A DNA stretch of 64,000 bases from Candidatus Borrarchaeum weybense (GTDB taxonomy: Archaea > Asgardarchaeota > Sifarchaeia > Borrarchaeales > Borrarchaeaceae). The first letter of the stretch is position 1; every line of letters starts with the position of its first letter. Made by a program: the position numbers and the translations under genes. Where the stretch lies: the NCBI GenBank assembly GCA_019057385.1, contig JAHQJS010000004.1:160001-224000 (forward strand), in the 5' to 3' direction. Below the pieces are notes generated by a model. It saw only the letters and a program-made list of their open reading frames with translations, searched no databases and was not told the origin of the DNA. Below are positions 2,991 to 8,069 of this stretch, piece after piece.

Positions 2991-4061
2991 TTATTTCTCA
3001 ATGATTGTCTCCGAAATCTTTGTACCAAAATGCCGGCCTCCTTCCTCAGCATGAATTAATATCGTGTCTCCTGTCTTAAGATTAGTTACTGATATTGGTT
3101 TCCCGCTACCATCGACTAGGCGGATAGTTTCAGCATTTTGCAGAAGTATTTTATAAACCGTTGCATTATATTCAGCTTCCACCAAAAGAAGTGGTCTACT
3201 CTCTATTTTAGAACGGCCTACAATGACAATACGTGCGGTACCATCGTTTTTAACAGCCAAAATTTCGTTTCCCGCCTTAATTTCAGATAAATATTTCGTT
3301 TTTTTGTCCTTAGCGAGTATATATGAATGAACTGCGCCAGCATTTACCCGAAAAGGTCGTGTTTCTACATAAGGACTCTCAACGGTTTCACTATGAACTA
3401 AAAAATATCCTCCGCTTTGTGATCCGACTAACATTCCTTCTCCTAAAGATAACATTGAACATGTATCAATACATGCCCTGTCGCCCATGCCTACCTCTTT
3501 TATGGTAATAATCTCGGCTTTAGAGAGTGCGATCTTTATTTTATTCACGTCTTTCAGTAAATCTGCAGCGTTTGTTATGTCACTAAGTATATCAGGCTTC
3601 AGTAAAATCCCATCAGCACCTTTTTCTAAAATCTCTATATTCAATTTCGCTTCAGCAATATCTTTGGAAACCGCGATAATTTTGCAATCTTTGATTTCAG
3701 CGATCAGATTTTCAAGTGGGATAATTTTCCATTCGGTCCCTTCAACTATTACCGCCTGTGCCTTTTTAGAGGCTTCAACTACTCGTCGTTCATCTTCTTT
3801 TGAATTAATGATGATATATGGGACGGTATGGTCGTTTATGCCCTTGATATCGTCATCAGATAAAATTTCTACTAATTTAAAATCGGCATCGGTCCCTCCG
3901 AGGGTTGTAATACTCCCTAATTCTTTCACTTTACTTGATTCTCCTTCTTTGACCATTATTTTGGAGGCATCTGACTCTAATGACTTGGTGATATACTTCT
4001 TACGTTGATTCCAGTCGAGATCTTTATGAGCAGCATTTATCCAGAGTTCTTTTGCATTCAT
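2991..4061 (-). CDS. aroB': 3-dehydroquinate synthase II (archaeal AroB')
   Basis: WKIIPLENLIA, GDRACIDTCS, HSETVESPYVETRPFRVNAGAVHSY, ILLQNAETIRL, GRHFG. Start set at ATG 4061 after an SD (GGTGA). Confidence 0.93.
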   Translation of the reverse strand: MNAKELWINAAHKDLDWNQRKKYITKSLESDASKIMVKEGESSKVKELGSITTLGGTDADFKLVEILSDDDIKGINDHTVPYIIINSKEDERRVVEASKKAQAVIVEGTEWKIIPLENLIAEIKDCKIIAVSKDIAEAKLNIEILEKGADGILLKPDILSDITNAADLLKDVNKIKIALSKAEIITIKEVGMGDRACIDTCSMLSLGEGMLVGSQSGGYFLVHSETVESPYVETRPFRVNAGAVHSYILAKDKKTKYLSEIKAGNEILAVKNDGTARIVIVGRSKIESRPLLLVEAEYNATVYKILLQNAETIRLVDGSGKPISVTNLKTGDTILIHAEEGGRHFGTKISETIIEK

Positions 4062-4179
4062 TACTATCACCAAAATATGTTTAGAAACCAAATATTTGGA
4101 AAATATGTTGAGGCGGTAGTCGCTAATTCTTTAATTTCTTCAAATTTTCCTTCTAATTGCAGGATAATTTGTTTATCCG

Positions 4180-4962
4180 TCAAATTTTCACTACCTCCAG
4201 CGTCTCATCAACTGTCCATCCGTCATACACAATTTTTACAATCGCTTGGACTATCCCTGTCGGATTATTGTGTTGAAACACATTTCTGCCAAAAGTAAGC
4301 CCCATACAACCAGATTTCATGGCACCTTCTACCATCTCAAGCACTGCTCTATCATTATCCGCCTTTTCACCTCCAGCGATAACTATTGGCACAGGACATC
4401 CACGAACAATATCTTTGAAAGTCTCTGGCGAACCCGTATAATTACATTTTACGATATCAGCGCCCAATTCAGCGCCAATTCGTGCAACCATAGCGATATT
4501 TTTGGGATCTAATGGATCTTTCACGTTTTCTCCACGAGCATACATCATTGCAATCAAAGGAATTTGCCACTGATCACATTTATCTGCGAATTCGCCGAGT
4601 TTGAGTAGCATCTCTGGTTCTGTTTTACAGCCTATGTTGATATGCAGACTGACCGCATCAGCACCGAGCCTTATAGCTTCTTCAACTGATCCTGTCCTGA
4701 CCTTTTTGTTTGAGTCTGGTCCCAAAGAGGTGCTTGCAGAAAAATGGGCAATGAGCCCGCAATTCGGGACTGCTTTTAAAGATCGTATGATACCTTTATG
4801 AAGCAAGACAGCACTTGCACCGCCTTCCACAACCTTAAAAACAGTTTCATCCATATCTACTATGCCTTTCACAGGCCCTAGACTCACTCCATGATCCATT
4901 GGTATAATGATTGCTTTACCATTTTTTAAAATTCTATTTAATCTAACTTCTTTTCCGTTCAT
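4180..4962 (-). CDS. aroA': 2-amino-3,7-dideoxy-D-threo-hept-6-ulosonate synthase (AroA', class I aldolase DhnA family)
   Basis: PMDHGVSLGP, ELGADIVKCNYTG (Schiff-base Lys), GRNVFQH. Directly upstream of aroB'. Confidence 0.9.
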   Translation of the reverse strand: MNGKEVRLNRILKNGKAIIIPMDHGVSLGPVKGIVDMDETVFKVVEGGASAVLLHKGIIRSLKAVPNCGLIAHFSASTSLGPDSNKKVRTGSVEEAIRLGADAVSLHINIGCKTEPEMLLKLGEFADKCDQWQIPLIAMMYARGENVKDPLDPKNIAMVARIGAELGADIVKCNYTGSPETFKDIVRGCPVPIVIAGGEKADNDRAVLEMVEGAMKSGCMGLTFGRNVFQHNNPTGIVQAIVKIVYDGWTVDETLEVVKI

Positions 4963-4987: not shown

Positions 4988-6223
4988 TTAATTTGGCAAG
5001 TTAAGGGCTTCTTTTACTTGTTTAAGTGCGCTTTCTCTCTCGTTCCAGTTTACAAAAACCCGGATATTTGAGTTTATAGTGAGAAAACCATAGAGGTTCA
5101 TTTCCGTAAAGGGGTAACTTATCCGCTCAATAACACCCGGCGTAGTCTCAAGATCTCGTCCACTAATCGTTATAAGTGCTAAATCATTATGATTGGTTAT
5201 TGCCTTGCCAATTTTGGCTTCGATCATTTTTTTATGAAGTATCTCAACTAAAGAACCAGAATCTGTTTCAGGGATAGTTGCATAGAATATTACAGATCCA
5301 CTCTCTAGCGATGCACCGACAAGTTCGCATCCCATCTGTTGTATTTCATCGATAAATAAGTGGATATTTTTGGCTTTAACGACCTCTTTGCCGATTATAG
5401 TAATCATCTGTAGCCTTTGATTGAAAAGCGAGGCATGAAGGTCAGGGAATACCGCACCACTAATAATCGTTCCTCCCTCAGAGATATGTCCGTTAGAGAA
5501 TCCAACAATGCGGATATTCATGTCTTTTGGCTTAAATCTCAATGCTTTATTATGGATGACTTTTGCTCCTGCGGAAGTTAAGGACATGACCTCTTCAACA
5601 TCCAAATGTTCTATAAGCGCTGTTTCATGGATCTTCTTAGGGTCACCTGAAAAAACGCCCTCCACATCTTTGACTAAAATCACTTCAGAAGCGTTTAAAC
5701 AGTTACCAAGTATCACCGCAGTCGTATCCGCACCACCGCGTCCTAATGTCGTGATTTTATCTGTAATTCGGTCCTTGCCTAAAAATCCTGGAATAACAGG
5801 GACTTTATTTTCAGCAAGAAGTGGCAGGATGTGTTCTTGTATCGCCTGCTGCGTTTCCACCATATCTGGCTCAGCATCTCCATGTCTTGAATTCGTGTAG
5901 ATGGGCCACGAATCAGAAACAGGATCAATTAAAGCAGCATCCATATTTTTGCTAGTGAGTGAACTCATCATCAAACGTGCGCTTGTGCGTTCGCCCATAG
6001 CGAGAATATCATCCATCTCATGTAATTTAACTTTTCCGTTGGTGCAAGATTGTGCGAGCGAGAGGAGACTGTCCGTCATGCCGTTCAAAGCCGATACTAC
6101 GACTACAAGGCCTTTTACCTGAGCAAGTTCATTAAGAATGTGATCAGCAGCCTGTCCTATTGCTTCACCAGAGCCTAGACATGAACCTCCAAACTTTACC
6201 ACAACGATAGAATCTTTAACCAT
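4988..6223 (-). CDS. lysC: Aspartate kinase with C-terminal ACT domains
   Basis: VVKFGGS, VVVSA, GERTS, TTLGRGGADTTA, KDVEGVFSGDP. SD GGAGG at 6235-6231, ATG at 6223. Confidence 0.93.
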   Translation of the reverse strand: MVKDSIVVVKFGGSCLGSGEAIGQAADHILNELAQVKGLVVVVSALNGMTDSLLSLAQSCTNGKVKLHEMDDILAMGERTSARLMMSSLTSKNMDAALIDPVSDSWPIYTNSRHGDAEPDMVETQQAIQEHILPLLAENKVPVIPGFLGKDRITDKITTLGRGGADTTAVILGNCLNASEVILVKDVEGVFSGDPKKIHETALIEHLDVEEVMSLTSAGAKVIHNKALRFKPKDMNIRIVGFSNGHISEGGTIISGAVFPDLHASLFNQRLQMITIIGKEVVKAKNIHLFIDEIQQMGCELVGASLESGSVIFYATIPETDSGSLVEILHKKMIEAKIGKAITNHNDLALITISGRDLETTPGVIERISYPFTEMNLYGFLTINSNIRVFVNWNERESALKQVKEALNLPN

Positions 6224-6253
6224 CAAAAAACCTCCAGAAAATCGCTTTATCCG

Positions 6254-6310
6254 CTAGAAGCGGAAATAGCTATAAAAGCTAAAGCTAGTAAAATAACTCC
6301 AAGAGGGCAT
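6254..6310 (-). CDS. Putative aromatic-rich leader peptide MPSWSYFTSFSFYSYFRF
   Basis: ATG 6310 to TAG 6254. 9 of 18 residues are W/Y/F. Ends 30 nt before the lysC ATG and lies downstream of a TATA-like box. Confidence 0.5.
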   Translation of the reverse strand: MPSWSYFTSFSFYSYFRF

Positions 6311-6352
6311 TGCATATGCGTCAGAAAACGAAGAAAGCTTGTATTCTAGTTC

Positions 6353-6372
6353 TTTAAATAACATTTCATTCG
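6353..6372 (-). promoter_or_regulatory. BRE/TATA-like promoter for the leader-lysC-aroA'-aroB' operon
   Basis: Minus strand CGAATGAAATG-TTATTTAAAG, 43-51 nt upstream of the leader ATG. Confidence 0.45.
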
Positions 6373-6522
6373 AAAGCCAAGAGGTGTAACCTAAGCAATC
6401 CAATGGTGTCATCTTAGTAAAAATTAGTCCTCCGCACCACAGACACCTCTCATGCGAAACAATAGGCAACACCCTATTTTATATTAGTACGCTCTCTATT
6501 TCATATCTATCTTATAAACCTT

Positions 6523-7056
6523 ATGTTGGTTAGCTTTGGAGAGCTAATTATTCTGGTGGTGAGCTTTTTAAAAATCGAGTTAGAAGTTGAACTTACTGAC
6601 AAACCGGGAGAACTAGTAAGGTGTTTAGAACCCATATCTGCTCAAGGAGGAAATATTTTACAAGTTATTCACCATAGGTCATTAGATGTTGGAAAAGGAG
6701 TAGCACCTGTTTCAATTCATTTTGAAGTTGAAAACATCGATGTGATTGAAGATATTAAGAATGCCATCGAGCAGCAGGGTGTGCATGTAGTAAAATGGGA
6801 ACAAGAGTTTGTAGGGTTCAAGAAAATTGTGCTTCTTATCGGACATGTTTTTCAGAAGGATATCACAGATACAATTATTCGTCTTCTTGACAGTGGTGTT
6901 TTAGTGAATGAAGTTAATGCAAAAATCACGCAGAAAGAGGAAGTTTCAACCGTGAAGTTTTCGATTGTAGGTGATACCGAACAGAAGATTCAGGAAGCCA
7001 TGAAGCTTTGTAAAGAAATCTCAATGGAAAAAGGGCTATTCCTAATCAGAGGTTGA
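6523..7056 (+). CDS. ACT-domain protein (putative allosteric partner of homoserine dehydrogenase)
   Basis: ELTDKPGEL...GGNILQVIH ACT motif, second ACT-like half LIGHVF. Overlaps the hom start. True start may be slightly downstream. Confidence 0.85.
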   Translation: MLVSFGELIILVVSFLKIELEVELTDKPGELVRCLEPISAQGGNILQVIHHRSLDVGKGVAPVSIHFEVENIDVIEDIKNAIEQQGVHVVKWEQEFVGFKKIVLLIGHVFQKDITDTIIRLLDSGVLVNEVNAKITQKEEVSTVKFSIVGDTEQKIQEAMKLCKEISMEKGLFLIRG

Positions 7057-8069
7057 AGTCAATGAATATTGCGTTAGTAGGTTTTGGAAGTGTTGGAAAA
7101 GGCGTTGCACAAGTATTTTCAAAGAAACAAGATCATCTAAGACAAAAATATGATCTTTCCTTTTCATTTAAGGGAATCTTCACAAGTAAAGGCGCATTCT
7201 TAGATCCAAATGGATTAGATTTGCAGAATATATTGAACACAAAAGATCTAACTGCTCACCCTTCATGGAAAAAAGATCTATCTTTCATGGAGTCTATCGA
7301 TGATCTTGATGTGGACCTTGTAATCGAAGTTACGCCTACAAATATCGAGGATGGAGAGCCAGGAAAGTCGCATATAATCTCTTCAATAAAGAAAGGATGT
7401 GATGTTGTCACAGCAAACAAAGGTCCTCTTGTTGTAGCTTTTAATGAACTTACACAACTAGCTCAACAAAATGATTCTATTTTAAGATATGAAGGAAGTG
7501 TAGCAGGCGGAATCCCCGTATTTAATTTAGTACGTAAGTCCTTGCAAGGTAATACCATTCATTCGCTAAAAGGAATTTTAAACGGTACATCTAACTTTAT
7601 TCTCACTCAGATGACCTATGAAAGAACGTCTTTTAAAAGCGCATTAAAAACGGCCCAGGAGTTAGGATATGCAGAGGCAGATCCCACATACGATGTCGAA
7701 GGTATCGATGCTGCAAGTAAAACCGTAATACTAGCGAATGGGCTATTTGGCATGAATAAAGGTATCGATGATGTTTACATTCAAGGTATCACTAAAGTGA
7801 CTCCAGAAGCTATTGAACTCGCTGGCAATGATAACTTTCTCATCAAACATATCGCATCCATTGAAGATGGACAAATTGAGGTTGCACCAAGACTCATTCC
7901 AGTTACTTCCACTCTTGCGGTGAATGGAACGCTCAATGTAATATCACTGCAAACAGATCTTGCAAAAGAAATAACAATTATTGGTAGAGGTGCGGGTGGT
8001 GAGGAAACCGCAAGTGCAATATTGAGCGACGTTATCAATATTCATTGTGCACGAACTACTCTATCCTAA
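7053..8069 (+). CDS. hom: Homoserine dehydrogenase
   Basis: GFGSVG Rossmann motif, VVTANKGP, YEGSVAGGIP, GILNGTSN, ELGYAEADPTYDVEGIDAASK, GRGAGGEETASA. Confidence 0.95.
   Translation: MKSMNIALVGFGSVGKGVAQVFSKKQDHLRQKYDLSFSFKGIFTSKGAFLDPNGLDLQNILNTKDLTAHPSWKKDLSFMESIDDLDVDLVIEVTPTNIEDGEPGKSHIISSIKKGCDVVTANKGPLVVAFNELTQLAQQNDSILRYEGSVAGGIPVFNLVRKSLQGNTIHSLKGILNGTSNFILTQMTYERTSFKSALKTAQELGYAEADPTYDVEGIDAASKTVILANGLFGMNKGIDDVYIQGITKVTPEAIELAGNDNFLIKHIASIEDGQIEVAPRLIPVTSTLAVNGTLNVISLQTDLAKEITIIGRGAGGEETASAILSDVINIHCARTTLS

Follow-up and report, generated by a model that had tools for sequence, protein, structure and literature searches.

The stretch of DNA analysed here (the window) comprises 64,000 nucleotides of the Asgard archaeon Candidatus Borrarchaeum weybense (assembly GCA_019057385.1, contig JAHQJS010000004.1, positions 160,001 to 224,000; positions below count from its first letter). 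On the minus strand it carries an operon of three genes, lysC-aroA'-aroB', preceded by a leader in which a small open reading frame (ORF) rich in Phe, Tyr and Trp codons ends shortly before lysC. The first gene encodes an aspartate kinase of 411 amino acids (aa), a lysC/ask paralogue with TTG 6226 and ATG 6223 as candidate starts. Here it is linked to AroA' and AroB', the gene set of the DKFP/aspartate-semialdehyde route to 3-dehydroquinate. An earlier reading made from the letters alone (the sequence-only reading) had assigned the operon in the same way, and the profile scores bear it out, with an AA_kinase match for the first product, a TIGR01949 score above cut-off for the second and a PF01959 match for the third (Table 1). 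The biochemistry of the DKFP/aspartate-semialdehyde route to 3-dehydroquinate has reportedly been described. Another, distant aspartate kinase is encoded elsewhere in the genome.

The small ORF starts at ATG 6310-6308 and stops at TAG 6256-6254. It contains one Trp, three Tyr and five Phe, all within residues 4-18, so that 9 of its 18 codons specify aromatic residues directly ahead of an operon for entry into aromatic biosynthesis. The sequence-only reading had described the ORF in these terms, and had cautioned that a U-rich strand might inflate the aromatic count. The description was confirmed on the sequence, and the caution could be set aside: at least nine aromatics in the last 15 residues were obtained in none of 5000 dinucleotide-preserving shuffles of the 302-nt intergenic region, and U-richness does not account for the count. 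Among the 6920 intergenic small ORFs of the 4.18-Mb genome (those with a stop at most 200 nt upstream of a same-strand ORF of at least 100 aa) this ORF ranks first, as the single top scorer. The leader ORF is no composition artefact; it exists, is statistically exceptional and is conserved.

The stop codon of the ORF lies in a predicted hairpin. The inner stem pairs UCCGCU (6264-6259) with AGCGGA (6255-6250) across the loop UCU, and an outer extension of three pairs joins GCU (6270-6268) to AGC (6246-6244). The 5' arm consists of codons 14-18 (S Y F R F), and UAG extends across the loop and the 3' arm. Beyond the hairpin, after GA, follow a U4 tract, the Shine-Dalgarno (SD) sequence of lysC and a U6 tract; both the hairpin and this succession had been pointed out before and are present as claimed. 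Such an arrangement is rare in this genome: among its 351 genes with a GGAGG SD, seven have at least five T directly after it, and only two of these, lysC being one, also have T4 within 20 nt before it. The archaeal termination signal consists of U-tracts without a hairpin, two U4 tracts giving the best aCPSF1 binding and the strongest termination, and the aCPSF1 orthologues of Lokiarchaeota and Thaumarchaeota act alike (PMC8716108). In the leader, U4 and U6 are two tracts of U4 or longer within about 20-30 nt, which is the sequence criterion for an archaeal aCPSF1 (FttA) terminator taken from the same work. This geometry of hairpin, U-tracts and SD, together with the link to the entry genes of the archaeal aromatic pathway, is an observed property of the locus.

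Table 1. Coordinates of the leader elements, the operon genes and a second, Trp-codon leader of the same genome
Feature	Position	Strand	Basis
Aromatic-codon block, 18 codons + TAG, MPSWSYFTSFSFYSYFRF	6254..6310	(-)	sequence; shuffles; genome ranking; relatives
Stop-codon hairpin, GCU-AUU-UCCGCU-[UCU]-AGCGGA-UAA-AGC	6244..6270	(-)	predicted in all five Borrarchaeota sequences
U4 6241-6238, CU, SD GGAGG 6235-6231, U6 6230-6225	6225..6241	(-)	double U-tract flanking the lysC ribosome-binding site (RBS)
Long open frame, 72 codons from GTG 6472 / TTG 6469, with the aromatic block as its 3' end	6254..6472	(-)	frame open in relatives
Conserved upstream leader domain	6379..6451	(-)	RNAalifold; relatives
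TTTATAA, TATA-like element	6512..6518	(-)	conserved in all relatives
TATA-like box of the sequence-only reading, TTATTTAAAG	6352..6361	(-)	present here, not conserved
Aspartate kinase (lysC/ask paralogue), operon gene 1	4988..6223	(-)	PF00696 147 bits; TIGR00657 255 bits, cut-off 208.7
AroA' (ADH synthase)	4180..4962	(-)	TIGR01949 336.9 bits, cut-off 299.45
AroB' (3-dehydroquinate synthase II)	2991..4091	(-)	PF01959 429 bits
Trp-codon leader ORF ending ...FSWHPWHSWRWQ	L123:3491-3682 = G000:C5:117790-117981, outside the window	(-)	conserved in two genus relatives

Four close relatives within the Borrarchaeota were available for comparison, three same-genus genomes and one metagenome contig, in which LysC is 75-79% identical. 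Their leader peptides read VPFWRYYTSYSFYCYFSFYFRF, MPYWSYTYYSFYSYFSFYFRF and VPFWSYYTFYSFYSYFSFYFRF, with ...YFSFYFRF at a contig end, and the exchanges observed were between F and Y, between S and Y or F, and between S and R or C. Insertions and deletions within the frame measure 3, 12 and 39 nt, all of them in frame, and no stops arise; those between the leader stop and lysC measure 1-3 nt. The hairpin has 13 pairs in the relatives and nine here, where one arm lacks 3 nt and the other 2 nt and the outer GCU/AGC pairs are retained. The U6 tract is kept in all five Borrarchaeota leaders and the first U-run (at least four) in four of the five.

A more distant set consisted of 77 loci with orthologues of this aspartate kinase, 38-47% identical. 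An aromatic upstream ORF (uORF), with at least six aromatics in its last 12 residues and a stop at most 120 nt from the lysC start, was found in 37 of them, a count in which related genomes are not independent and to which several lineages contribute (Heimdallarchaeota, Bathyarchaeia, Nitrososphaerales and Caldarchaeales-type metagenome-assembled genomes). Shuffles gave a mean of 0.28 and a maximum of 4, and the reverse strand never scored above 4. The distant peptides are unrelated in sequence and alike in composition only, as in ...FDYYFYYYHFP, ...PIFGFRY, ...YGYSW and ...YSYRYSYTYRV. T-richness can be excluded as the cause, because a GC-rich contig also has such a uORF, ending ...FQAYFFYYGP, with its stop in the loop of GGUCCC-UAA-GGGGACC. 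The genes aroA'/aroB' lie downstream of this clade of aspartate kinase almost always; the Jordarchaeia/Freyarchaeota paralogue loci without aro genes within 3 kb downstream (L039-L043) have uORF scores of at most 4. Conservation of an aromatic-rich uORF in orthologous loci had been named in the sequence-only reading as the decisive check, and it was clearly seen, in the four relatives and in the 37 distant loci, with diverged sequence and kept enrichment. Since both the conservation and the shuffle tests were passed, a ribosome-read, aromatic-codon leader is well supported.

Several of the distant leaders have features of their own. In the Heimdallarchaeota locus L051 (JBHIFL010000006.1), the 300 nt ahead of lysC contain two Tyr-rich uORFs in tandem, ...MYSYCYSYTY and MAGFSYTYSYRYSYTYRV. 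The stop of each is covered by a terminal GCUAUACC...GGUAUAGC hairpin, after which come T-runs and a G-run resembling an SD, and the pair looks like a duplicated attenuator unit. The lysC-aro leaders of Jordarchaeia/Freyarchaeota loci L034-L038 differ: within 200 nt upstream, the 16-mer GTGATGCCCTGCCAAT occurs twice and is followed by T5 runs, and the small ORFs (MPCQYL..., MPCQFTWF) are weakly aromatic. These leaders may represent a protein- or ligand-binding element rather than a control-codon leader. In the Nitrososphaerales loci L063, L068, L070 and L087, the lysC SD is paired by an anti-SD directly 3' of the ...YGYSW uORF stop, and the two have undergone a compensatory change (CUCUCCAA:UUGGAGGG versus ...CCAG:CUGGAGGG), which suggests a translational output in that lineage.

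A genome scan for runs of single amino acids revealed a second leader of this kind, with Trp codons. Four of the last ten codons of this ORF are Trp codons, and its stop lies 84 nt ahead of a TrpB2-type gene (NF009057, 722 bits). The ORF has about 59-63 codons, a TATA element about 40 nt upstream of its start, an SD-like GGTGG before a conserved ATG and T6 downstream. By manual base-pairing the stop codon falls within a hairpin; minimum-energy folding assigns it, together with the Trp codons, to the 5' arm of a hairpin. The indole-3-glycerol-phosphate synthase IGPS (TrpC, PF00218) was not found in the genome, and all 14 control genomes matched; for this reason TrpB2 may be the sole Trp-forming step of the organism, with Trp made from indole only. 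The genome encodes two TrpB2 paralogues. An F/Y-rich 12-codon ORF, LSFYRYTFYFLY (L125:204-242 (+) = G000:C6:804403-804441), stands 28 nt ahead of the second; it is unconserved in two genus relatives, is probably due to chance and was kept as a negative control. No convincing leader was found ahead of the aroD-to-aroC-like operon (C4:714697-719138) or the prephenate dehydratase cluster, and in the genome scan no run of any other amino acid was linked to a biosynthetic operon.

The aromatic block of the lysC leader is the tail of a longer frame. In all four Borrarchaeota relatives it stays open over 72-105 codons and is not interrupted even by a 39-nt duplication; each of the remaining two frames of the leader region contains three to five stops in the Borrarchaeota sequences. 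Because of this the extent of 18 codons given in the sequence-only reading is unsupported, and the frame 6254..6472 is the probable full leader ORF. Its start candidates are GTG 6472 or TTG 6469, an invariant ATG 6412, ATG 6364 and ATG 6310, the last of which is GTG in two relatives. The proposed promoter did not hold either: the TATA-like box TTATTTAAAG is replaced by TCTTTTTTAG or TCTTTTGAAG in the relatives and is unsupported for lack of conservation. TTTATAA (6518-6512) is the only TATA-like element kept in all relatives and lies 45-46 nt upstream of the conserved GTG 6472; a TATA-to-start spacing of about 40-50 nt is also found in the trpB2 leader and in the Bathyarchaeia leaders. The sigma-70-like matches of a bacterial promoter scan are irrelevant for an archaeon. 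From the conserved TATA-like element and from the in-frame indels that keep the frame open we infer, indirectly, that transcription starts upstream of the ORF and that the ORF is translated from one of the candidate start codons.

The upstream part of the frame shows no third-position bias and no excess of synonymous change relative to the other frames. The missing third-position bias means that no selection acts on the amino-acid sequence of this part, which, if translated, would be a spacer and not a protein under selection. It does contain a conserved domain at the RNA level. RNAalifold predicted a long-range helix of GAGAGGUGU (6451-6443) with ACACCUCUU (6387-6379), comprising 12 pairs, two of them with compensatory changes (in four sequences only). 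The helix surrounds a U5 tract (6423-6419) and a nearly invariant 23-nt block, ACUAAG-AUG-ACACCAU.GGAUUG (ACUAAGAUGACACCAU.GGAUUG, 6418-6396), and 39 nt of the domain are duplicated in frame in two relatives. The domain occurs once in the genome, which speaks against the block as an operator or regulon element; in a leader of about 265 nt the domain might serve as an additional control module. A comparison with Rfam, riboswitches, T-box and L-box included, left the window without a match at gathering score and 6180-6560 without one at E<=5.

On the opposite strand (6523-8069, +), an ACT-domain gene and a homoserine dehydrogenase gene are read away from this intergenic region. ATG 6523, annotated as a start, lies only 5 nt from the conserved TATA-like element, and in one relative a stop follows directly after it; because of this crowding and this stop, the true start is probably further downstream, at the GTG near 6556. 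The DNA of the locus occurs in sediment metagenomes (17 DNA sequencing runs).

It is quite probable, in our judgement, that a ribosome-read aromatic sensor controls the operon; most of this confidence falls on an output through termination and a much smaller share on a translational one. The form that we favour, and regard as probable, is attenuation of lysC-aroA'-aroB' by premature termination, probably assisted by aCPSF1/FttA. The sensor would be the translated leader ORF of the lysC-aroA'-aroB' transcript, whose last 15-20 codons are mostly for Phe, Tyr and Trp. When charged aromatic tRNAs are scarce, the ribosome would slow on the aromatic codons; when they are plentiful, it would reach the stop and depart. 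Because the 5' arm and the loop contain the control codons and the stop, the position of the ribosome would decide whether the hairpin 6270-6244 exists as RNA polymerase passes U4 and U6, and the state of the hairpin would set the number of transcripts that reach lysC. A ribosome on the last five or so codons or on the stop would melt the hairpin, and one held further upstream would leave it free.

The sign of this effect may be read in two ways. In the sequence-only reading, the hairpin and the adjoining U-tracts would form a negative element, and a stalled ribosome would block the hairpin. Alternatively, the hairpin would shield the transcript at the U-tracts, and a ribosome at the stop would remove it and expose the U-tracts to aCPSF1/FttA; such shielding would account for the expected sign and for a stop codon in or abutting a hairpin in several independent leaders. 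A third possibility is a translational output through the helix CUUCUAG:CUGGAGG. All three readings agree with this geometry, and both the sign and the controlled step (termination or initiation) are a matter of inference. Of the interpretation proposed from the letters alone, the aromatic-codon leader, its conservation, the shuffle test and the operon stand, and the promoter, the 18-codon extent, a pairing of codons 2-5 with the SD and the mechanism lack support.

Several observations weigh against attenuation by termination. Simple coupling arguments yield either regulatory sign, and the run search that returned the 17 DNA runs found no RNA sequencing run containing the locus. The ATG 6310 has no SD before it and is replaced by GTG in two relatives. 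The energy of the hairpin is unexceptional in comparison with shuffles (z -0.9 to -1.8), and a scan for bacterial-type terminators was empty here. No stable antiterminator partner was found: a pairing of the hairpin 3' arm with U4 was considered and rejected, at about -2 kcal/mol and no better than shuffles. A TATA-like string, TTTTATAG (6277-6270), sits within the aromatic block, and if the main transcription start site (TSS) were downstream of it, the ORF would be off the mRNA. The layout of the leader downstream of the uORF also varies between lineages, and one mechanism may therefore not fit all.

The explanation that survives best beside termination keeps the same sensor and moves the output to translation, which we consider unlikely. 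The pyrimidine-rich aromatic and Ser codons, or CUUCUAG (6260-6254), would mask the lysC SD CUGGAGG (6237-6231), and a stalled ribosome would open it, as in ermC and cat. In this sequence the SD is predicted to be paired to leader-ORF nucleotides with P 0.88, and CUUCUAG:CUGGAGG is iso-energetic with the local hairpin (-13.1 kcal/mol). All five sequences could form an alternative helix with the SD, which in the four relatives is CUUCUAA:UUGGAGG, with one G-C to A-U double change, and the anti-SD after the uORF stop in some Nitrososphaerales, with its compensatory CUCUCCAA:UUGGAGGG versus ...CCAG:CUGGAGGG, points in the same direction. However, the probability of pairing falls to 0.00-0.57 in the relatives, where, with the SD 33-54% unpaired, the helix that masks it is 4-7 kcal/mol costlier than the local hairpin; the partner of the SD changes from sequence to sequence, and the sole covariation, found where 1 nt is deleted, may be due to chance. 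Codon-order shuffles match or beat the SD-leader pairing in 58 of 200 cases here and in 161-177 of 200 in the relatives. For this reason the pairing of the SD with codons 2-5 (CCUCUUGGAG) that the sequence-only reading had proposed appears generic to pyrimidine-rich codons; it is seen in the minimum-energy fold of this sequence and is not kept in the relatives.

It is quite improbable that the conserved element acts in the DNA, with the T/A-rich block as the lysC core promoter (TTTTATAG, TSS near 6247) and the frame and its aromatic codons as by-products. TTTTATAG or TTTTATTG is kept in the four relatives, such a promoter would yield a typical 5' untranslated region of about 25 nt containing the SD, and it would fit with the unconserved upstream TATA-like box TTATTTAAAG and with an ATG 6310 lacking an SD. 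It would leave unexplained the in-frame indels, the lack of stops and the exchanges between F and Y, as well as the Bathyarchaeia aromatic uORFs with a TATA and a start of their own and the GC-rich leader uORFs without any TATA-like string. The 12-nt insertion in the relatives would, moreover, shift the TSS into the hairpin. An internal promoter could also coexist with the leader.

Slightly less probable still is a functional small protein or peptide that merely neighbours the operon, whether a peptide acting in trans or a Cys-containing product of 72 aa whose aromatic tail is hydrophobic. In its favour, every relative keeps the long frame open, CxxC-like spacings (ERCLWCGG...DCL) occur in the N-terminal half, and action in trans is known for some leader peptides of bacteria (peTrpL; PMC7298713). 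Against this, the upstream part lacks the codon-level signs of selection given above, one Cys position is unconserved, the leader-frame protein has no Pfam match and no homologue in 5.8 billion predicted proteins (39-126 aa), and the other lineages share the aromatic composition and not the sequence. A chance ORF produced by the composition of a U-rich strand, for which the unconserved F/Y-rich LSFYRYTFYFLY before the second trpB2 paralogue might be cited, is refuted for practical purposes by the shuffles (0 of 5000), the first rank in the genome and the conservation across several archaeal lineages including a GC-rich one.

Beyond this locus, we lean slightly towards the view that archaea, Asgard lineages included, sense amino acids by translation-coupled leader ORFs, and that the lysC and trpB2 leaders are natural attenuators in which a TATA promoter and a stop-codon hairpin are combined with a hairpin-independent double U-tract that aCPSF1/FttA reads. 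A mechanism of attenuation or antitermination was described as unknown in archaea (Blombach et al., 2021; PMC8448881), and in our literature searches no report of an archaeal leader-peptide attenuator or control-codon leader was found. If attenuation by these leaders is confirmed, they would be its first cases in the archaeal domain, and ribosome-mediated sensing would no longer be confined to bacteria. The present analysis contributes cases from two Asgard groups, Borrarchaeota and Heimdallarchaeota, and a Trp-codon leader encoded alongside the lysC leader in one genome. These archaea would need functional coupling of transcription and translation, or else initiation that depends on structure, and the leaders would offer a direct handle on coupling in the closest prokaryotic relatives of eukaryotes. 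The control codons, the stop-codon hairpin and the double U-tract would be defined cis elements for crosstalk of the ribosome with an RNA polymerase II-like enzyme and the CPSF73-like terminator FttA. The aspartate kinase paralogue would be marked as a dedicated, aromatic-regulated enzyme.

Leader-peptide attenuation is textbook knowledge for bacteria, and in the 1:2 hairpin of Escherichia coli trpL the 5' arm contains the control codons, with the stop codon in or next to the loop. The lysC leader resembles that hairpin in the placement of its control codons and its stop. Like the trpL, pheL-pheA, hisL, thrL and leuL attenuators of E. coli, it has a leader ORF with end-product codons directly ahead of the biosynthetic genes, and as in bacterial attenuators there are U-runs before the first structural gene and composition rather than sequence is conserved. 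It differs from them in its archaeal host, with a TATA/BRE promoter and an RNA polymerase II-like enzyme, in a frame that possibly extends to 72 codons and in serving three amino acids with one leader. A single conserved hairpin was found, with neither a 2:3 antiterminator nor a 3:4 terminator, and the putative terminator is the hairpin-independent archaeal double U-tract flanking the SD.

Another parallel may be the aroR leader peptide, which in Corynebacterium glutamicum reportedly precedes aroF. There, as here, a short aromatic leader is said to stand at the entry enzyme of the shikimate pathway and not at a terminal branch; that system is bacterial and reportedly governs DAHP synthase, whereas the genes here belong to the aspartate kinase / ADH synthase / DHQ (3-dehydroquinate) synthase II route. 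As in ermC, cat and the mycobacterial polycysteine leaderless small ORFs (bioRxiv 10.1101/834739), a ribosome stalled on the uORF could remodel a structure that contains the RBS. In contrast to ermC/cat translational attenuation, the masking of the SD here is no better than in codon shuffles, and the stall signal would be tRNA supply and not a drug.

In archaea, the known regulators of aromatic and Trp genes are DNA-binding proteins that act at promoters, TrpY in Methanothermobacter and Tar (TK0271) in Thermococcus (PMC6737238). The leader ORF shares with TrpY and Tar its target, the archaeal genes of aromatic amino-acid biosynthesis, and differs from them in being a leader ORF and not a DNA-binding protein. 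Crenarchaeota are largely without TrpY and Tar, and 'a third regulator or mechanism' has been considered possible (PMC6737238). A leader-ORF device of the type described here would be a candidate for that third mechanism in Crenarchaeota lacking TrpY and Tar.

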